From positions 11,110-75,109 of the forward strand of contig DATIHF010000006.1 in the NCBI GenBank assembly GCA_035480955.1: DNA of 64,000 bases, read 5' to 3'. Shown here piece after piece: positions 29,397-52,348 of this stretch (positions within the stretch are counted from its first letter, which is position 1; each line of letters starts with the position of its first letter). The position numbers and the translations under genes are program-made. The notes beneath the pieces are model-generated. The model worked only from the letters and a program-made list of their open reading frames with translations, made no database searches and was not told the origin of the DNA. This DNA comes from Candidatus Saccharimonadales bacterium. GTDB lineage: Bacteria; Patescibacteriota; Microgenomatia; Woykebacterales; RBG-16-39-9b.

Positions 29397-29987
29397 ATGC
29401 CAACAACAATCTTTTTCGTGCGCCATGGCCAAAGTGAAAATTTGGAAAAAATAAATTACGGCCGCATGCCTGGCTATCCTTTATCAGAAACTGGGACCGC
29501 CCAAGCCGAGGCGGACGGAAAATATTTTGCTGATAAAAAGATAACGGCCATTTTTACCTCTCCTTTGGAAAGGTCCTTTCAAACCGCGGACATCATTGCC
29601 AAAGCTTGCCCCTCGGCAACTGTGGAGCATGTCTTTGATCTCAATGAAGCTGAGGCGACTCACTGGCAGGGAATGAAAGTAGAGGAGCTTTTCACCAACA
29701 GTTTTTACGAAACTTTTGTCAACGATCCAGATGCAGATATCGGCACGGAAAATCTCACTGAAGTGGCCGCTCGTATGGAAAAAACACTCCAGGAAATCCT
29801 CTCAAAACACAAAGGGCAAAATATTGTCTGCGTTTCCCATGAATTTCCAATTCTTGCGCTAAAACTCAAACTTGAAGGCAAGCCTTTGCAGAGTATGAAA
29901 ACTTATCACCTGCCGATGGGCGGAGTGCTTTCGTTTACTTTTGACGATTCCGGAAAATTTGTTAAAACCGAAGAAGTCAGCGTCTGA
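29397..29987 (+). CDS. histidine phosphatase (phosphoglycerate-mutase-like) family protein
   Basis: FFVRHGQSE (RHG catalytic motif) and later SHEF. Confidence 0.8.
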   Translation: MPTTIFFVRHGQSENLEKINYGRMPGYPLSETGTAQAEADGKYFADKKITAIFTSPLERSFQTADIIAKACPSATVEHVFDLNEAEATHWQGMKVEELFTNSFYETFVNDPDADIGTENLTEVAARMEKTLQEILSKHKGQNIVCVSHEFPILALKLKLEGKPLQSMKTYHLPMGGVLSFTFDDSGKFVKTEEVSV

Positions 29988-30369
29988 AAAGGCGTTTGTT
30001 GATGGCGCGGATAGGGAAAAGCGGATCAAAAGAGCGGATTGAAAAATTCCTCAAACTTCTTCTAGACCTTCCCTTTGACCAATCTTTTTCTCTTCTTAAA
30101 ATCTCATTCATCCGATCACAAGCTTTATCAATCGCTGCGTACATGTCACCTGCTTGATCAGAAATCTTCAAAGTTTTCTTGGGGATTTTCACCACAATAT
30201 TGACGATGAAGTCTGTTTCTTTATCTTTGTGCGCTTTCTCCGAGCGCAGCTCAATCTCAGTCCTAATAATCTCAGGGAAATAGCGATAAAATTTTTGGGA
30301 TTTTTTGGTCGCGTAGTCTTGCAGGGCCTGATTTTCGTTTAGGTGTTTACCTTTGACAACGATACTCAT
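29977..30369 (-). CDS. hpf: ribosome hibernation promoting factor / RaiA family
   Basis: MSIVVKGKHLNENQALQDYATKKSQKF...IELRSEKAHKDKETDFIVNIVVKIPKK matches YfiA/HPF. Confidence 0.85.
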   Translation of the reverse strand: MSIVVKGKHLNENQALQDYATKKSQKFYRYFPEIIRTEIELRSEKAHKDKETDFIVNIVVKIPKKTLKISDQAGDMYAAIDKACDRMNEILRREKDWSKGRSRRSLRNFSIRSFDPLFPIRAINKRLFRR

Positions 30370-30509
30370 CTGATGAAAAGTATAATTTGTCTGTCCCTTG
30401 ATTTCAAGAAAGAAGCGAGCAAATTTTTTGAAAGATTGACTTTCCGCAGGAAAGCGAGCGCGAAGCGATTGACAACCAAGCGGCTTTTTCGATAGGCTAA
30501 AGAGAGCCC

Positions 30510-31247
30510 ATGCAAGACGCTACTGCTACCACTCAAATTTCCACTGAAGCTTTTCCTATACAAGAGCCGATCGTGCTCACCCCCGGACTTGACGAAAAAG
30601 TCAAAAAAAGTAAGCCAAAAACCGGTAGGGGAGCTTTTTCAACTCTCGGTATCCTCCTCGCCGGCTGGTTTTTTGGTAATTTGATTTTGGTGGGACTTCT
30701 TTCGATCGTTGTCATGGTCTCGGCCTCTTCTACTGGATTGATCAAAGTTCCTTTTTTCACCGAAAATTTTTTTGGAAAAAGCTTGTCCACTAGCGTCGTG
30801 GCGGACGCTACCGGTCTAGAGTCTGCCGAAGCAAAAATAGCGGAAATCAACACTCTCTCCTCAAATAAAACCATCAAAAGCCTACAGTTCACACAAGATG
30901 AGATCAACGCTCTTTTTGCCAATCAAGTCGAACAGAAGGGTAGTTTTCCACTTTATGATCCCAAGATTGTTATCAAAGATGGAAAGTTTGTTTTCAGTGC
31001 CAAGATGATTCAGACAAATGCTCCAGTTACCATCGCCGGCAACGTCACTTCTTCGGGTCTAATTGCCAATATCGAGCTCACTTCAGCAAAATTTGGCAAA
31101 GTCTCCCTGCCGACTTTTCTAGCCAGCAATTTATTTGATTCTTACTTGTCACAAATTGGCCTGAGTCTCTCAGGTAGCCAAGTGCCGGCCAAGCAAATCA
31201 CCCTGGAAAACGGATCGGTGACCCTGGTCTCTGTTTCCAAACCCTAA
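30510..31247 (+). CDS. membrane-anchored hypothetical protein
   Basis: TM at GILLAGWFFGNLILVGLLSIVVMV. Possible TTGACA-17-TAGGCT promoter upstream. Confidence 0.5.
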   Translation: MQDATATTQISTEAFPIQEPIVLTPGLDEKVKKSKPKTGRGAFSTLGILLAGWFFGNLILVGLLSIVVMVSASSTGLIKVPFFTENFFGKSLSTSVVADATGLESAEAKIAEINTLSSNKTIKSLQFTQDEINALFANQVEQKGSFPLYDPKIVIKDGKFVFSAKMIQTNAPVTIAGNVTSSGLIANIELTSAKFGKVSLPTFLASNLFDSYLSQIGLSLSGSQVPAKQITLENGSVTLVSVSKP

Positions 31248-31289
31248 CTCTCATTTGAGAAAAAACTCGCAATCGAATAAACTTAAAAT

Positions 31290-31652
31290 ATGCAGCCTGC
31301 CATCTCAATCAGCTCATACCTGATTAGCTTGCCTTTGGAATTTCTCAACTGGTGGTTCGTCGAGGCAACTTTCAACCTTTTCAAAATTCTCCGTTTCGTC
31401 CTAGCTGCCGCCCTTCGTTTGTTGGGAGTCGAGTTGCTTTTGAAAACTTTTTTCAAACCCTGGAAAAATGAATACCGAGAAGGGTTGACCCGCTTTGCCC
31501 TTTTCATGGGTATGGGGATCAAAACTTTTATTTTATTTTTTGATTTTTTGTTTTTCTCAGCTTTGATTTTTCTGGAAGGGCTCATTTTAGTAGCTTGGCT
31601 TGCTTTTCCACTGCTTGTAATCTGGGGGGTCTATGCTGCAATTTTCACCTAG
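31290..31652 (+). CDS. small polytopic membrane protein (overlaps the start of the Clp-type ATPase gene by 20 nt)
   Basis: Hydrophobic 120-aa ORF. The antisense ORF 31283..31585 is Lys-rich as expected for the reverse of Phe/Leu codons. Confidence 0.5.
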   Translation: MQPAISISSYLISLPLEFLNWWFVEATFNLFKILRFVLAAALRLLGVELLLKTFFKPWKNEYREGLTRFALFMGMGIKTFILFFDFLFFSALIFLEGLILVAWLAFPLLVIWGVYAAIFT

Positions 31653-34089
31653 TACCAGCAGAGTTTGGCAAGCCGCGACCTTTTGCCTCATCTACAGCTC
31701 ACTTTTGGGGATAATCATCAGACTCTCGGCTTTCATACTTTTGCTGACGACTATCTTGTTACTTCTCACCAATGGCACCAAATTTTTCCCGCCGCTGCTT
31801 TTTTCTCTTTTGTCACTTCTGATTATGTTTGAATTTTTCTATCGTTTTAAAGTCAGCCGCGAAAAGCCCCGCTTCAGCGTCGAAGAAATAAAAGAAACTA
31901 CCAATTTAGCTGATTTAGTTACGCTCCCGCTGGCCAAACTGCTTCTTTCTCACCCTGCTTGGAGCGAAACAAAAAGTCTCATGAATGCGCTGAGTTTTTC
32001 GGAAAGTGTCAAATTTGTCCTTTACCGGTCAGGAATCTCACGGGACAACTTGGGAGCTCTTTTTGCCAACGGGGAAGAGATAAACTTGAACGGCGCGCTG
32101 CAGACTGCGGCAGATATTTCCGCGAAAGAAGGTTGGGTCTACATCGATGAGCTCTCACTGGTCTCAGCTTTGTTCAGCAAATCTGCTCTCCTACAGAAGC
32201 TCCTTTTTGACCGAAACCTCAAGCAAAATGACCTAGACAATATCCTACACTGGGCCCGGGAAGCGCAAAAAGTTTATCTCGAAGATCGACCTTTTTGGGA
32301 ACTTTCGACTTCCTCCTTGGGACTAGGACTAGCGGAGGTTTGGATGGGTGGTTGGACTCTGGAGACTGAAAAATACACCAAGGATATCAACACCGAAGTA
32401 CTCAAAAGAAGTGAGGAATATTTTTTGGTCGGTCGGGGCAAAGAAGTCTCCCAACTTGAACAAGTACTTCTGCGAACCAGCAAGAGAAATGCGATTTTGC
32501 TGGGTGAGCCGGGTCTGGGAAAAACGACAATTGTTTATTCTCTCGCGAGAAAATCCGTGATTGGGGAGCTTCCGGTCGAGCTCTCTTACAAACGCTTCAT
32601 GGAGCTGGATCTCACCTCAATCAATGCTTCAGCGAACGAGGGAGAGATCGAGCAGAGACTCAAAAATATTTTGGTTGAGGTTTCCCATGCTGGGGACGTC
32701 GTGCTTTTTGTTCCCAACATTGAGAACCTCGCTGGCGCGCTTGAAGGCGGAAAGTTTGATATCTCAGGACTGCTTTCTCAGACTTTGAAAGATATTAACT
32801 TGCAAGTCATTGGAACTTCCACACGAGCAGCCTTCCATAAATACATCGAGGACAAAGCAGTTTTTGCCGATTCCTTCGAGGTCATTGACGTGACCGAGCC
32901 AAATACAGACGAGGCGATCAGAATATTGGAAGAAGCAACTCATCTGATTGAAAGTAAAACTGGTGTGAAGATTACTTACAAAGCGATTCTGAAAGCAGTT
33001 GAGCTCTCGGAACGCTACCTAATTGACAAAGTTTTGCCAGGTAAAGCGATCAACCTGGTCGATGAGGCAGCGGCCAATATCGCTCTTTCCGGGAAAAAAT
33101 TGCTGGAAGAGTCCGACATTGAACATATAATTTCTGATAAAGCGAAGGTCCCGGCTGGACTTGCTACTGGAGAAGAGAAAGATAAATTACTCCAGCTTGA
33201 AAAAGTCCTCCACCAGAGAATCGTCTCCCAAGATGAGGCCATCTCGGCTATCTCTCAAGCTGTCAGGCGGGCGAGAACTCTCAAACGAGACAGCAAAAAA
33301 CCAATCGGAGTTTTCCTTTTTCTGGGACCAACTGGAGTGGGAAAGACCGAGACTGCCAAAGCTCTCGCGGAGGTTTACTACGGATCAGAAGAGCGGATCT
33401 TGCGCTTTGACATGAGTGAATTTAACCAGGAAAACAGTGTTTATCGACTCATCGGCTCTCCTCCTGGCTCATCAGAATTTAAAGAAGGCGGCCAGCTCAC
33501 TGAAGCAGTCCGGGTCAATCCTTTTAGTTTGATCCTATTGGATGAGCTGGAAAAAGCCCACAGCAAAGTTTTGGAAATTTTCTTGGCAATTTTCGATGAG
33601 GGAAGGATCACTGACTCTTCAGGACGACCAATTTCTTTTACCAATACAATAATAATTGGAACGTCCAATGCGGGAGCAGAGTATATCCGCGAGCAAATCA
33701 ACAGCGGTAACCCAGCAGATCTGAAAAAATCTTTAATTGAGAAGCTTTTGACTGAAAATACTTTTCGTCCTGAGTTTATCAACCGTTTTGATGATGTGAT
33801 CGTCTATCGACCACTGGATCAGATCGAAGTCACCAAAGTAGTCGAAATGCTTTTGAACAATCTAGCTCGCCGCTTAGAGAAACAAGATTTAACAGTGAAA
33901 TTCACTCCAGCTCTTGTAACCTTTCTAGCCAAAATAGGCTACGATCCACAGTTTGGCGCTCGACCACTCCAGCGAGCGATCCAGGATCAAGTTGAAGCAA
34001 AAATTTCCCAGGCAATACTAGAGGGCAAACTCGCTCGGGGAGCCAAAACCACTGTTACAGCAGCCAACGACCAAGTCACTTTAAGTTAA
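31633..34089 (+). CDS. Clp/Hsp100-family double-AAA+ ATPase with N-terminal transmembrane anchor
   Basis: AAA-1 LLGEPGLGKTTIV. AAA-2 FLGPTGVGKTETAKALA, LLDELEKAH and RPEFINRFDDVIVYRPL. About 60 N-terminal residues form two TM helices, followed by a Clp_N-like repeat. Confidence 0.85.
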   Translation: MLQFSPSTSRVWQAATFCLIYSSLLGIIIRLSAFILLLTTILLLLTNGTKFFPPLLFSLLSLLIMFEFFYRFKVSREKPRFSVEEIKETTNLADLVTLPLAKLLLSHPAWSETKSLMNALSFSESVKFVLYRSGISRDNLGALFANGEEINLNGALQTAADISAKEGWVYIDELSLVSALFSKSALLQKLLFDRNLKQNDLDNILHWAREAQKVYLEDRPFWELSTSSLGLGLAEVWMGGWTLETEKYTKDINTEVLKRSEEYFLVGRGKEVSQLEQVLLRTSKRNAILLGEPGLGKTTIVYSLARKSVIGELPVELSYKRFMELDLTSINASANEGEIEQRLKNILVEVSHAGDVVLFVPNIENLAGALEGGKFDISGLLSQTLKDINLQVIGTSTRAAFHKYIEDKAVFADSFEVIDVTEPNTDEAIRILEEATHLIESKTGVKITYKAILKAVELSERYLIDKVLPGKAINLVDEAAANIALSGKKLLEESDIEHIISDKAKVPAGLATGEEKDKLLQLEKVLHQRIVSQDEAISAISQAVRRARTLKRDSKKPIGVFLFLGPTGVGKTETAKALAEVYYGSEERILRFDMSEFNQENSVYRLIGSPPGSSEFKEGGQLTEAVRVNPFSLILLDELEKAHSKVLEIFLAIFDEGRITDSSGRPISFTNTIIIGTSNAGAEYIREQINSGNPADLKKSLIEKLLTENTFRPEFINRFDDVIVYRPLDQIEVTKVVEMLLNNLARRLEKQDLTVKFTPALVTFLAKIGYDPQFGARPLQRAIQDQVEAKISQAILEGKLARGAKTTVTAANDQVTLS

Positions 34090-34158
34090 TTCTTCCAAAT
34101 TTTGATCTTGAAAGGTATAATACAAAGGTTCATAAACTAATTCCAAGGAGGGAGAGTT

Positions 34159-34479
34159 ATGCACTGGTTCTTAACCAAAACTGTTAAGGCACTCGTGCTT
34201 GCCATACTGACAGCTGTAAGTTGTGGTTTACTTGTGTCGCTCTTCATACTATTGACCTCAACAGAAAGCTGGAACCAAATGAAAACTCTGGTGGTGGTAG
34301 TCTCCTTTTTCTTGTTCGTGGGCATTTTCACAGTGTTGATGATTGATTTAAGTGAAAACCCTACAGCAGAATTGTATGAACCAGTAAAACCGATTAAGAA
34401 AAAGGCAGACGCAGACGTTTTGATTGAAGATGTCCTAGACTTTCTTAACGAGAATAATCCCACATTAAAGAAGAAATAA
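34159..34479 (+). CDS. small 3-TM membrane protein
   Basis: AAGGAGGGAG RBS. Hydrophobic 106 aa. Confidence 0.5.
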   Translation: MHWFLTKTVKALVLAILTAVSCGLLVSLFILLTSTESWNQMKTLVVVVSFFLFVGIFTVLMIDLSENPTAELYEPVKPIKKKADADVLIEDVLDFLNENNPTLKKK

Positions 34480-34513
34480 GATGATCAAATGTGAAGTCGG
34501 AGAGTTACCACGC

Positions 34514-34549
34514 TGAGCCGTTAACTGAAGAAAGTTGCGGCTCTTTTTT
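34514..34549 (+). terminator. intrinsic terminator
   Basis: GAGCCG-17-nt loop-CGGCUC followed by UUUUUUU. Confidence 0.5.
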
Positions 34550-34602
34550 TATTTTTTACTCCTTTTGTTATAATAGCCACGATCAATCCTGAAGGAGGCG
34601 TG

Positions 34603-34899
34603 ATGAAGGCGATCAGCGAAGGCAGAGCGATTCTTTTCGAAAGCTACTGTCGAGAAGAAGGAAAGATCATCGGTCGACAGATCTTTGCTCAGAAAACCAC
34701 TCTCGATGGCTACCGTATCGTAGTTGTTGGAGACTCAATCTATTACGCTTCAGCACTTAACAAGAGGGATTTAAGAAAGCTCTTGACGACTGACTTGGGT
34801 GCAAATGAACAAATCGTCTGCTTCCTACAAAGAAGAGAAAATTTCATTGTCGGGTTTGAAAAACGTGTCATAAATCAAATCGTCGAAAGAGCAGTGTAA
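34603..34899 (+). CDS. hypothetical small protein
   Basis: TATAAT about 25 nt upstream and GAAGGAGG RBS. 98 aa. Confidence 0.45.
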   Translation: MKAISEGRAILFESYCREEGKIIGRQIFAQKTTLDGYRIVVVGDSIYYASALNKRDLRKLLTTDLGANEQIVCFLQRRENFIVGFEKRVINQIVERAV

Positions 34900-49306: not shown

Positions 49307-52300
49307 TTATTGTTTTAATTGGGTCGGTGGAAAGCGGAAAATTTCCACTTCCCCACTTTTTCCTGCTATTGCAGGCTCTTTTTTCTCTTCATTCTGCCCA
49401 CCAACTAACCCAGTCGGCAGGTTTTGATTAAGATTTTCCGGAGTAATTTTTGCTTGTTCTTGCTCTTGCCTAGAGATTGCCCCAGGGTCTGGGTAAGATT
49501 CTGTTCCTTCCAGATTTTGATTGAGCTCTTCAAAACTTTCTACCACGGGAATATTTTTATTAAGATCAACATTGTCTTTCGGCGGCAGAAAAGCGGTGTC
49601 AACACTGTTCAAACTAATTGCAGATGGTTGCGGTGGTGCTTGAGGTGTTTGTATTTGTGGTTGGGTGGTTTCTGGAGCAGGAATTGGCGCCGCAACCGGA
49701 GTTTGTGGTGCAGGAGTGCTTTGTGGTTGTTGAAGAGCCTCTGGTACGAATGTCGGTGGGGTTGGTGCACTAACAGGAGCTTTCAAACTTTCCTCGACCA
49801 GTAAATCTGCCAAGGGAGATCCACCTGAAGTGGCTGGTTGTCCAAAAGCGGGTGTTGTTCTAGCTGGAGCAGGAGTGGCGGCCGCAGCGGCAGCGGCACG
49901 AGCTTCTTCGACGGCCCAGGCGGGCGGCTGAGGTGGCTGGCCGGGAATGAATTTCGTCTCCGTCCATTTTTTGATTAATTTCTCTACCTTTTCGACTTCC
50001 TTACCAAACTTGATGCGGGAGAGCTGAATTGCTTTAGTTGTCATTGCCGTAGCATCAGTTGGAGGTGCGAGAGAGACGGCCGAGAATGGTTTTGATCCCT
50101 GATCGTCAATTTGCAGTTTAATATACATTTCGAATCGACCGAGGTTGATAAAATCATTTTCCAAAAAGACCGGTGAGAATTCTCTTTCCAAAAAGTGCGC
50201 GTCCTGATTCCCAACTCCAAAGACAATCGTGGTACCAACGTTTCCAAAAATAGCATCCCGGACAGTTTCCGGCATTTGCTCGATATACTGATGCGTAATA
50301 ACCAAATCCAATCGGTATTTTCTCGCTTCAGAGAGTATCACTGCAAACGAATCTGTCGCAAAGTTTTGGAACTCGTCAGCGTAAAGGAAGAAATCTTGGC
50401 GACTCTCTTCTGGAATATCGACTCGGCGCATGGCGGCAAACTCCAACTGGGAAACAATCATCGCTCCGAGCAGTGAAGTGTTGTTCGCACCGATACGACC
50501 TGAAGCCAAATTGACGAAGAAAAGTTTTTTGTTATTGATAATATCGTCAACTTTGATCGTGGATTTTGGCTGCCCAACAATATTTCTGATCAGCTCACTG
50601 TTTAAGAACTGTCCAACTTTGTTTTGAATTGGTGCGATCGCTTCGGTGATGAGTCGGTCGTTTTGCTCCAATTTGGCAAACTCGGTTAGCCAGAAGTCTT
50701 TCATTTGCGGATCTTTGATGAGCCCCACGATATATCTGCGGTAGCCTTTATCAACCAAAAGTCGAGTGATCGACAACAGTGAGGTGTTTGGCACCTCGAG
50801 AAGTGTCAAAATACAATTTTTCAAAATGTACTCAAGTCGAGGTCCCCAGCTGTTGGCAAAGTATTTTTTGAAAACGTCAACCAGGGTGTCGGCCATCAGC
50901 GTCCTCTGTCTTGGGTCGACCATCTCCAACATGTTCAATGAGACCGGGTGATCCGCATCAGCTGGATTGAAAATGACTACATCTTCAGCTCGGTTTTCCG
51001 GAACAAATTCAAGCAGCTCGTCAATTAATTGTCCATGGGGATCCAAAACCGCCACTCCCTCACCGTTGCGCATATCTTGAATAATCATGTTTTTGATCAA
51101 AGTAGACTTACCCGTACCAGTTTTTCCAATAATATACATGTGTTTTCGTCTGTCGGGCTTTTTAATTCCGAACGTTTGTTCGTGATCGCGGAAATAAGTT
51201 TTACCCAAATAAGTCACCGCTGAAGTCGGGATATTGAGCGGTGGTTCGCCTTTTTTAGAATGAGTCCAGGCAATCGTAGGTGTCTCAACTGAAAGATTTG
51301 GCAAGTGGAATATCGAGGCCAGCTCTTCGATCGTTAAGACATAGTCGCCACTAGCTCCTTCGGGAAAACTCCTATCACGGTAGCTTTTTACCATAGAAGC
51401 GGTGGTCGGACTGTCCGGATCAGGTTCAAAAGCATTTAAGGAGGCGGTGGAAAATTGTTTGAAAGAAGCAATTGCTGAGGAGAGTTTAGCCTGAGCTTCC
51501 TCTTTGGTGTCAGCAACGGCAACAACACGTATTTTTGTTTCAAAACCGATCTTGGAAAGTTTATTCTCAATCATTTTCAGATCAAGTTCTTGTCCAGCCG
51601 AAAGTCTAGGCGCGAGCTCCGCCCGAGCCGGAAGCGGCGGCTCTTTGGGACCGGACATCATGTAAGGAAGGATATTTGTTCCGACTGAGAGAATATGCTT
51701 ACCGACATCAATTGCGATATCTCCAGGAGCCAGAGAAACGGGATGTTTACCCTCTCTAACCATTTTCACGTAGTCATGGCCGCGATCTTGCCAAAAGTCA
51801 TCGATTGGCCGCACCATAATTTGCACCCAAATTTGTTCAGTTTTTCGCACGCTACCTAGTGCACTGGTAATTGCCGCTAGCGGATCCACCTCAAAGTCAC
51901 GGAAAGTTTTGATTGGAAAAATAAAATCTTTGGCGAGAGCCAGCTCTGTTCCGATGACCACAGCATTGTCACTAACGCTTTTAGAATAATCAACTGCTTC
52001 TCGGATCTCAGCATCAGGATATTGTGCGTAGATTTGGCTTTCAACGAAACTTTTGAAACCTCTTGGGGTAAAACAGTAAAAATTGATTCCAGAGGAAGAG
52101 CTGGCCATCTCTAGTGAGATGTGTTCTTGCAAGTCTGGAGTAAAACGCAGTAAACCGTGGAGCGACGCGAACATCTGCTCAGCCGCTATTGGCAGTTTTT
52201 CATTTTCTTTGGGAAGTCGAATAGAAAGGAGTACTCCCTCCCCAATTGCTTCTTTCTTACTATCCCCTTTTTCCTGCGATAAGGCAGAACGGTAAGCCCA

Positions 52301-52348
52301 GAAAAAAGCGATTATTACGATAACTAAAATGCCGCCTATTACTAGCAT
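49307..52348 (-). CDS. membrane-anchored TraD/TrwB/VirD4-like (FtsK-HerA superfamily) P-loop ATPase with long P/Q/A-rich C-terminal tail
   Basis: N-terminal TM. Walker A IIGKTGTGKSTL, VLDPHGQLIDEL and Walker B FFLYADEFQNF. Roughly 250-aa low-complexity C-terminus. Confidence 0.65.
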   Translation of the reverse strand: MLVIGGILVIVIIAFFWAYRSALSQEKGDSKKEAIGEGVLLSIRLPKENEKLPIAAEQMFASLHGLLRFTPDLQEHISLEMASSSSGINFYCFTPRGFKSFVESQIYAQYPDAEIREAVDYSKSVSDNAVVIGTELALAKDFIFPIKTFRDFEVDPLAAITSALGSVRKTEQIWVQIMVRPIDDFWQDRGHDYVKMVREGKHPVSLAPGDIAIDVGKHILSVGTNILPYMMSGPKEPPLPARAELAPRLSAGQELDLKMIENKLSKIGFETKIRVVAVADTKEEAQAKLSSAIASFKQFSTASLNAFEPDPDSPTTASMVKSYRDRSFPEGASGDYVLTIEELASIFHLPNLSVETPTIAWTHSKKGEPPLNIPTSAVTYLGKTYFRDHEQTFGIKKPDRRKHMYIIGKTGTGKSTLIKNMIIQDMRNGEGVAVLDPHGQLIDELLEFVPENRAEDVVIFNPADADHPVSLNMLEMVDPRQRTLMADTLVDVFKKYFANSWGPRLEYILKNCILTLLEVPNTSLLSITRLLVDKGYRRYIVGLIKDPQMKDFWLTEFAKLEQNDRLITEAIAPIQNKVGQFLNSELIRNIVGQPKSTIKVDDIINNKKLFFVNLASGRIGANNTSLLGAMIVSQLEFAAMRRVDIPEESRQDFFLYADEFQNFATDSFAVILSEARKYRLDLVITHQYIEQMPETVRDAIFGNVGTTIVFGVGNQDAHFLEREFSPVFLENDFINLGRFEMYIKLQIDDQGSKPFSAVSLAPPTDATAMTTKAIQLSRIKFGKEVEKVEKLIKKWTETKFIPGQPPQPPAWAVEEARAAAAAAATPAPARTTPAFGQPATSGGSPLADLLVEESLKAPVSAPTPPTFVPEALQQPQSTPAPQTPVAAPIPAPETTQPQIQTPQAPPQPSAISLNSVDTAFLPPKDNVDLNKNIPVVESFEELNQNLEGTESYPDPGAISRQEQEQAKITPENLNQNLPTGLVGGQNEEKKEPAIAGKSGEVEIFRFPPTQLKQ

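Follow-up and report, generated by a model that had tools for sequence, protein, structure and literature searches.

What does a Clp/Hsp100-type ATPase do when it is anchored in a membrane, and with which partner? The question is raised by two genes in the 64-kb stretch of DNA analysed here (the window), which comes from a metagenome-assembled genome of Candidatus Saccharimonadales. Both are on the plus strand, as are all features below unless marked otherwise. The upstream gene (31290..31652) encodes a small membrane protein of 120 aa, and the downstream gene (31633..34089) encodes a membrane-anchored Hsp100-like ATPase of 818 aa. They overlap by 20 nt (31633..31652), a segment encoding both the conserved end of the small protein (YAAIFT and the stop codon) and the start of the ATPase (MLQFSP). 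The two open reading frames (ORFs), their sizes and the overlap had been claimed in an original prediction made from this DNA and are found at exactly these coordinates. The public gene call of the same genome region is identical (HSX57725.1, "hypothetical protein", and HSX57726.1). NCBI labels HSX57726.1 as "ATP-dependent Clp protease ATP-binding subunit", and JGI labels its homologs as ClpC. A different answer is favoured here, with a probability of about 0.55: the two proteins would form a ClpP-independent, membrane-embedded machine of two subunits, specific to the candidate phyla radiation (CPR), derived from Clp/Hsp100 and driven by the second (D2) of its two AAA+ modules.

The ATPase is a member of the Hsp100 superfamily as judged by predicted fold and domain order. 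Pfam detects AAA at residues 288-398, AAA_lid_9 at 425-518, AAA_2 at 556-721 (E 1e-53) and ClpB_D2-small at 728-808, and this combination of tandem AAA+ modules with AAA_lid_9 and ClpB_D2-small is the one that defines class 1 (two-ring) Clp/Hsp100 proteins. The first module, D1, covers residues 263-520 (32419..33192), and D2 with its small domain covers residues 556-812 (33298..34068). The motifs from which the two modules had been predicted, GEPGLGKT (at residue 291), GPTGVGKT (565) and FRPEFINRFD (711), are all present, although the last one carries the arginine finger of D2 and is not a sensor, as it had been called. No NCBIfam equivalog cut-off is reached: the scores amount to roughly half of the cut-offs, with 554 against 1232 bits for ClpB (TIGR03346), 488 against 993 for ClpA (TIGR02639) and 456 against 885 for ClpV.

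Clp_N was not detected by Pfam in residues 75-260, even at E<=10. However, hhalign comparison of this N-domain with genuine Clp_N domains gave a probability of 78% (E 1.8e-5, 135 columns). In the structural model, residues 92-211 (31906..32265) form an eight-helix bundle, and its top 50 Foldseek matches in the PDB are all N-domains of Clp/Hsp100 proteins (ClpC1, ClpA, ClpB, Hsp104, HSP101), the best with E 9e-3, with TM-scores of 0.5-0.6 normalised on the target. Judged by profile and model, the N-domain is a divergent Clp_N fold, in line with the Clp_N-like repeat of the original prediction. The linker between the N-domain and D1 contains a near-invariant, family-specific motif WxGGWTLETEKYT (W237 to T249; 32341..32379), to which AlphaFold2 assigns low confidence when the fragment is modelled alone.

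The N-terminus of the ATPase has three Kyte-Doolittle peaks (residues 12-29, 31-46 and 52-70). In the AlphaFold2 model of residues 1-262, built on an alignment of 25 sequences (mean pLDDT 82), it forms a short helix (10-21) followed by two helices of transmembrane (TM) length (24-46 and 53-74) with a loop of about six residues between them and no external domain. This membrane region (residues 10-74; 31660..31854) is conserved in sequence: the pattern MLxFSPxxSRLWQxAAFSLIYSS...R30...LMFE67xFYRFK, in which R30 and E67 are invariant, is shared by 35 full-length homologs that cover the whole query (approximately 810-827 aa, identity down to about 43%), those of Woykebacteria included. The last helix is followed by a basic flank, with a mean of 3.7 lysines and arginines in residues 71-85, and the strongly positive charge after residue 74 is consistent with a cytoplasmic ATPase. 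Hydropathy, conservation and modelling agree that the predicted anchor is real and conserved; the two N-terminal TM helices proposed at the outset are retained, and the homologs keep the extension.

Downstream of the start, ATG recurs in frame only at codon 65, which falls within the last hydrophobic helix, and at codon 117. The gene calls of four homologs (P0009, P0038, P0044 and P0047) begin at the conserved Met65, and the truncated call P0028 starts a few residues earlier. At the P0047 locus (L018) the frame runs 70 codons further upstream through a hydrophobic segment, and the small protein is encoded in the uncalled gap (101 bits). Thus the seemingly anchor-less P0047 is a truncated gene call. 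Met65 itself, at window position 31825, lies in a conserved internal LMFExFYRF context where the last TM helix ends. Translation might also start here and yield a soluble isoform, as is the case for ClpB and ClpA.

The two AAA+ modules differ sharply in the state of their functional residues in the alignment of 35 sequences. In D1 the Walker A lysine is present in all and the next Ser/Thr in 29, the Walker B aspartate is absent from all (with proline instead in 34), and neither the tyrosine of the KYRG pore loop nor an arginine finger at either of the two positions occurs in any (0/35 each). In D2 the Walker A motif, the Walker B glutamate, the arginine finger and the sensor-2 arginine are each found in 35/35. 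The D2 pore loop, GYVGY in canonical proteins, is changed to G(S/T/A)SE(Y/F), where the first tyrosine is never retained (0/35) and the second aromatic residue is retained in 30 of the 35. In distant CPR relatives, including the gene fusion P0318 described below, this loop is shortened or deleted. The identity of D1 is 73% in close and 54% in distant members, against 83% and 66% for the large domain of D2, which makes D1 the second most conserved part of the protein. As D1 is still well conserved, it appears to be a pseudo-ATPase ring maintained by selection and not a decaying one. By these residues D1 is predicted to be catalytically dead and D2 to be a catalytically intact motor.

The region corresponding to the M-domain is 71 residues long, compared with 195-197 residues in ClpB references and 132 in ClpC-like references. 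E. coli ClpA is co-linear with the ATPase over 572 residues (240-811 of the query, 164-736 of ClpA), and the ClpB hidden Markov model matches the ATPase in two separate stretches. The alignments indicate that the ATPase has no M-domain, and the linker between the AAA+ modules is as short as had been noticed. D2 aligns without gaps to D2 of T. thermophilus ClpB (315 bits); in the alignment with B. subtilis ClpC it has a gap exactly at the ClpP-docking KYVGFN loop. Neither a ClpP-docking insertion nor an (I/V/L)G(F/L) tripeptide is found between sensor-1 and the arginine finger of D2 in the 47 CPR members (0/47), whereas the ClpC-like references in the same alignment have LGF or FGF inside an insertion of 7-9 residues. 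This loop, whose presence had been named as a point to check, is missing from both the ATPase and the family alignment, which supports independence of ClpP.

ClpP was also not found in the 64-kb window, as the original prediction stated, by tblastn with an unverified E. coli probe and by Pfam on the large ORFs; none was found in any fetched locus of the relatives. Pfam gives no match to Peptidase_M41 in the ATPase and none to FtsH in the large ORFs of the window, and tblastn of the window with an FtsH core probe (E. coli, likewise unverified) yielded matches confined to P-loop regions. No type VI secretion system (T6SS) genes occur among the neighbours in the window and at the fetched loci. 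Since both the ClpP loop and the M-domain are missing, the ATPase is very probably neither a Clp protease subunit nor a DnaK-coupled disaggregase of the ClpB type, and its sequence is at odds with the database label "Clp protease ATP-binding subunit".

These features define a coherent group. In the trait comparison of 103 evaluable Hsp100 hits to the window ATPase, 49 have a full or half M-domain; none of these has a hydrophobic N-terminus, and all have the D1 pore tyrosine and G(Y/F)xG in D2. The other 54 have no M-domain; pore tyrosines are absent from all of them (0/54), and the D1 Walker B is kept in three. A strong N-terminal hydrophobic segment is present in 48 of the 54, the other six being truncated calls or falling just below the threshold. 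Among these 103 sequences the predicted anchor, the missing M-domain and the missing pore tyrosines co-occur. Thus TM-anchored Clp ATPases recur in the CPR relatives, a distribution that the original prediction had left to be checked. The window pair combines the anchor, the absence of an M-domain and of pore tyrosines, and an upstream protein with a (T/S)FFxPW(K/R) loop, and the same combination is seen in all other loci examined. A scan of a genome collection with the single exact pattern GGWTLETE, which is not an estimate of distribution, gave six loci.

In four distant members of 913-938 aa (P0048, P0050, P0079, P0097) the TM helices are preceded by an additional CxxC...CxxC segment resembling a zinc ribbon, and Pfam detects Clp_N. 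Thus several N-terminal architectures exist in the membrane-anchored clade. At locus L018 (logan SRR30485914_16730, positions 1-1964) a 911-aa Hsp100 is encoded immediately upstream of the atypical pair. It has an intact D1 (ILFIDE, ERRF), GYVG in D2, ClpA-like spacing and no evident ClpP loop, and histidine replaces the D1 pore tyrosine (AGASHRGEFEER). The presence of this more conventional Hsp100 next to the pair indicates that the atypical ATPase is an additional specialised paralog and not a replacement, and CPR genomes may carry several unusual Hsp100 paralogs. Three of the records have unexpected taxonomic labels: CAYHXX010000001.1 (a 497-kb contig; L006/L002) and OZ246414.1 (a 915-kb chromosome; L007) are listed as "uncultured Gammaproteobacteria bacterium", and DATBWR010000008.1 (L011) as "Candidatus Nanoarchaeia archaeon". 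All three records carry the CPR-type module, and their gene content and the genome sizes suggest that the labels are wrong.

More is learned from the partner gene than from any other feature of the locus. Its product, the small protein, is hydrophobic, as had been noted, and matches nothing in Pfam or NCBIfam. It belongs to a family of 67 close clusters, extended to 195 representative clusters by an exhaustive HMMER search of 1.84 billion proteins. The members are nearly all 100-150 aa long, unannotated and free of Pfam domains, and nearly all come from CPR (Saccharimonadales, Levybacteria, Microgenomates, "Patescibacteria group"). In an alignment of 41 sequences, where overall identity falls to 29%, the columns of the loop TFFKPWKNEYREGL (T53-F-F-K-P-W-K-N-E-Y-R-E-G-L66; 31446..31487) are invariant or conserved in at least 90%, and a degenerate version, (T/S)(F/L)FxPW(K/R), is kept in distant members and in fusions. 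In the AlphaFold2 model (pLDDT 88) this loop lies between helices 7-45 and 67-119; Foldseek comparison of the model with the PDB gave no meaningful match.

A homolog of the small protein is encoded directly 5' of the ATPase at L002, L003, L004, L007, L008, L010 and L011, with an overlap of 20 nt (23 nt at L010). At L005 the two genes abut, and a small ORF is directly upstream also at L013 and L018. Thus the overlap recurs in seven further distinct genomes, including the Woykebacteria loci, where the identity of the ATPase is 49%. The other neighbours differ between loci of the Saccharimonadales and Woykebacteria types, and the persistence of the small ORF against this background supports its role as a partner. 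In the window, a Shine-Dalgarno-like run GGGGGG (31624..31629) lies inside the small ORF, 4 nt before the ATG of the ATPase, and a G-rich element of this kind precedes this ATG in six of nine loci. The arrangement probably provides translational coupling. The distant small-protein homologs P0249 and P0234 are encoded immediately 5' of TM-anchored Hsp100-like genes with a degenerate D1.

Fusions were sought with a profile built exclusively from standalone small proteins, against which reversed decoys do not score. In P0318 (821 aa) the small-protein domain (residues 3-117) leads directly into the N-domain, after which come D1 in degenerate form and D2 in intact form; P0318 scores 100.6 bits (E 4e-24 at the library size). 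For P0067 the score is 35.4 bits (E 6e-4), and P0049, at 23 bits, is a marginal candidate. In the first version of the test P0067 and P0049 had E 0.01-0.04; the exhaustive search and a broader profile were required to make P0067 convincing. The P0067 fusion is identical in four independent assemblies, and the gene upstream of it is a Mur ligase and not a small ORF. By these profile matches, at least two lineages have the small protein joined to the N-terminus of the ATPase in a single chain. Thus the small ORF, which had been taken for a neighbour, is a conserved partner.

It is likely, at about the odds given above, that the two proteins act as one machine. By homology the ATPase would be a hexamer whose 12 TM helices keep the N-domain face at the cytoplasmic side of the membrane, an arrangement like that of FtsH. 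The small protein, made in step through translational coupling, would join the TM helices of the ATPase in a ratio of about 1:1 and expose its invariant loop to the cytoplasm. D1 would be a scaffold that binds nucleotides, which leaves D2 as the only motor. The machine would act without ClpP and without coupling to DnaK on clients in or at the membrane, and its most likely action would be to pull on, extract or remodel membrane or envelope proteins by a non-canonical grip on the substrate. Of the membrane-working unfoldase or disaggregase envisaged originally, the conserved anchor and the independence of ClpP stand. The disaggregase part is not supported, the M-domain being absent, and neither is a classical unfoldase, as D1 appears dead, its pore-loop tyrosine is missing and the GYVG tyrosine of D2 is replaced.

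Architecture, motif losses, conservation, pairing and fusion are found directly in the alignments and models, and the function would follow from them by analogy with related proteins. Several points weigh against the proposed machine. The TM segments are predictions from hydropathy and AlphaFold2, and the model of the small protein has two very long helices, which may cross the membrane two or three times. The hexamer, the 1:1 stoichiometry and the contact of the subunits are suggested by homology, gene overlap and fusion. The loss of the pore tyrosines and the deletion of the D2 pore loop in distant members argue against hand-over-hand threading, and the word "pulling" may be wrong. Finally, the gene neighbourhoods at the loci examined provide no functional clue beyond the pair. 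A bolder form of the proposal, tentative and on balance improbable, places six TM hairpins and six small subunits coaxially with a ring driven by D2 alone, which would move or extract polypeptides without pore tyrosines or would not thread at all. If true, either the tyrosine-independent grip or the absence of threading would be a new mode of action of an Hsp100, and the machine would have a new envelope function in ultra-small episymbiotic bacteria.

The doubts about threading bring forward another explanation, a non-threading switch resembling Torsins. These AAA+ proteins are D2-like, lack aromatic pore loops and cooperate with small partners in the membrane. In such a switch, ATP-driven changes of D2 would pass through the N-domain and the TM helices to the small subunit, lipids or membrane proteins. 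All catalytic residues of D2 stay invariant even though the canonical aromatic pore residues have disappeared from D1 and D2 alike and distant members have lost the D2 loop, and both the loop of the small protein and the motif WxGGWTLETEKYT resemble a fixed interface rather than a site for substrates. However, the subfamily of the window retains a D2 loop of full length with the second aromatic residue in 30 of 35 sequences, which could still grip; the Clp_N domain, normally a site for substrates or adaptors, is kept; and the D2 arginine finger is present in all 35 sequences, unlike in Torsin. This explanation is a serious rival, though doubtful. A further one, a protein-translocation motor, is unlikely. 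In it the TM helices of six ATPase and six small subunits would build a channel on the same axis as the AAA+ pore, through which D2 would push polypeptides out of the cell or across the membrane, as HSP101 does on EXP2 in PTEX, possibly for export by an episymbiont. The N-terminal anchor indeed puts the entrance of the ring at the membrane, the membrane partner is conserved, probably co-translated and sometimes fused, and the ATPase does not depend on ClpP. The N-domains of HSP101 (4irf, 4iod) are among the structural matches, but so are those of all other Clp proteins. Against it, pore-loop tyrosines are found in neither ring and distant members have no D2 pore loop, whereas Plasmodium HSP101 has canonical pore loops. 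Moreover, the N-domain face of an Hsp100 is the side of substrate entry, so that threading would run away from the membrane, the inter-TM loop of about six residues leaves no external domain, and no secretion genes are linked to the pair at the loci examined.

Two more conventional explanations fare worse. An ordinary subunit of the ClpA or ClpC type, docking on a ClpP encoded elsewhere in the genome, would agree with the NCBI and JGI names and with the D1-D2 spacing, which equals that of ClpA; in addition, the search for ClpP covered the 64-kb window and the fetched loci only. However, it is very improbable given the docking insertion and tripeptide missing from all 47 members and present in ClpC-like references, the ClpA score far below the cut-off, and the failure to find ClpP in that search space. 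It is scarcely credible that the locus is an artefact, with a hydrophobic N-terminus produced by a mis-called start or with one gene split by a sequencing frameshift, although the homologs called from Met65 and the existence of single-gene fusions could be cited in its favour. A mis-called start is rejected by the conservation of the first 74 residues, with invariant R30 and E67, by the helices of the AlphaFold2 model, and by the P0047 locus, which carries the extension in frame and a small ORF in the uncalled gap; the Shine-Dalgarno-like run before the ATG of the ATPase also speaks for the annotated start. A gene split by a frameshift is rejected because the same two-frame layout with its 20-nt overlap recurs in eight independent genomes, which a random error cannot produce. 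A programmed frameshift leading to a fused isoform was judged unlikely: the overlap contains no recognizable slippery site, and the layout differs at L005, where the genes abut, and at L010, with its 23-nt overlap.

Returning to the two-subunit machine driven by D2, its ATPase can be placed among known systems by what it shares with each. With ClpB/Hsp104 it has in common the N-domain of the Clp_N fold, two AAA+ modules, ClpB_D2-small, the absence of a ClpP-docking loop, the gapless alignment with D2 from T. thermophilus and the best of the NCBIfam scores (554 bits). It differs from them in having no M-domain coiled coil (71 against about 196 residues), in a score far under the cut-off of 1232, in a D1 deprived of the Walker B aspartate, arginine fingers and pore tyrosine, in a D2 without the GYVG tyrosine, and in two N-terminal TM helices and a small membrane partner. 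ClpA and ClpC share the spacing of the modules (ClpA) and provide the best structural matches of the N-domain (the N-terminal domains of ClpC1 and ClpA). However, the ATPase has neither the IGL/VGF docking loop nor UVR nor a half M-domain, its D1 is apparently dead, and it is anchored in the membrane. ClpV/TssH would be similar as an Hsp100 that is independent of ClpP and remodels one dedicated partner, and the D1 pore loop of ClpV is not known to contain the tyrosine either. However, ClpV is a soluble protein encoded in T6SS clusters, it contains a middle domain, and both its D1 and its D2 are active, whereas the ATPase reaches 456 bits against the ClpV cut-off of 885 and has no T6SS genes nearby.

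The closest architectural parallels outside the soluble Hsp100 proteins differ in other respects. In FtsH two N-terminal TM helices tether a hexameric AAA+ ring with its entrance facing the membrane, and membrane proteins are the presumed clients in both cases. But FtsH consists of a single module of the classic clade with a periplasmic domain between the TM helices and a fused M41 protease, whereas the ATPase has two modules of the Hsp100 clade, an inter-TM loop of about six residues and no protease. Torsin with LAP1/LULL1 is similar in being Hsp100-D2-like, devoid of aromatic pore-loop residues, membrane-associated and dependent on a small membrane partner. However, Torsin is a eukaryotic, luminal single ring whose own arginine finger is missing and is supplied by the partner, whereas the ATPase described here has an invariant arginine finger in D2 and a partner that does not resemble AAA proteins. 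HSP101 of PTEX and Msp1 (ATAD1) place an AAA+ ring directly on a membrane, by docking on a pore or by an N-terminal TM helix, respectively. Both have canonical aromatic pore loops; HSP101 does not span the membrane, and Msp1 is a single ring.

Thus the ATPase fails the defining features of ClpB (the M-domain), of ClpA, ClpC and ClpE (the ClpP loop), of ClpV (score and context) and of FtsH (the protease). Judged by its residues, it also fails two general features of Hsp100 unfoldases, an active D1 and aromatic pore loops. A textbook Hsp100 is a soluble unfoldase: both of its rings are active, its pore loops carry tyrosines, and it has either an M-domain or a loop for docking on ClpP. The clade described here apparently keeps the Hsp100 chassis, but it has lost the textbook hallmarks and gained a membrane anchor and a dedicated small subunit with an invariant 14-residue loop. 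A literature search of incomplete coverage found no description of a membrane-anchored Hsp100 in CPR or of the small-protein family. If the pair forms a complex, it would be a natural test of an Hsp100 ring with one motor ring and no canonical pore loops, and it would assign the first function to an unannotated family of CPR membrane proteins (195 clusters). In any case, annotation as "Clp protease ATP-binding subunit" or ClpC is misleading and would inflate the counts of Clp proteolysis in metabolic reconstructions of CPR.

A consensus scan gave a candidate sigma-70-like promoter, TTGAGA-17-TAAACT (31255..31283; 9 of 12 matches, weak evidence), which ends 7 nt 5' of the ATG of the small ORF. 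No terminator was found on the plus strand in 30300-34700, and scans of the window yielded no Rfam families and no tRNA. Two further membrane-protein genes flank the pair. The gene at 30510-31247 adjoins the small ORF and encodes a protein of 245 aa that has a single TM segment and lacks Pfam domains; its homologs are adjacent to the pair, in either orientation, in loci of the Saccharimonadales type (L002, L003, L011) and are absent from the Woykebacteria loci. Downstream of the ATPase, a gene at 34159-34479 encodes a small membrane protein of 106 aa, and at L002-L005 the equivalent position just 3' of the ATPase is occupied by small membrane-protein genes of 89-221 aa with one or two hydrophobic segments. 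No sequence similarity could be detected among these downstream proteins of the window and of L002-L005, and the flanking small ORFs have no significant match in Pfam or NCBIfam. The 245-aa and 106-aa proteins were excluded as parts of the module, being conserved in close relatives only.

Further upstream, at 29397-29987, there is a gene of the His_Phos_1 family (histidine phosphatase, phosphoglycerate-mutase-like). Its homologs, with 45-61% identity, lie 1-3 kb 5' of the pair in five of eight distinct loci (L002, L003, L004, L010, L011), both Woykebacteria loci included; this recurrence may be residual synteny rather than a functional link. Finally, the minus strand of the window at 49307-52348 encodes a 1013-aa protein with a coupling-protein domain of the TrwB/VirD4 type (PF10412, E 1e-13) and a HerA-like P-loop, which suggests an ATPase of a type IV secretion or conjugation-like system in a small genome.

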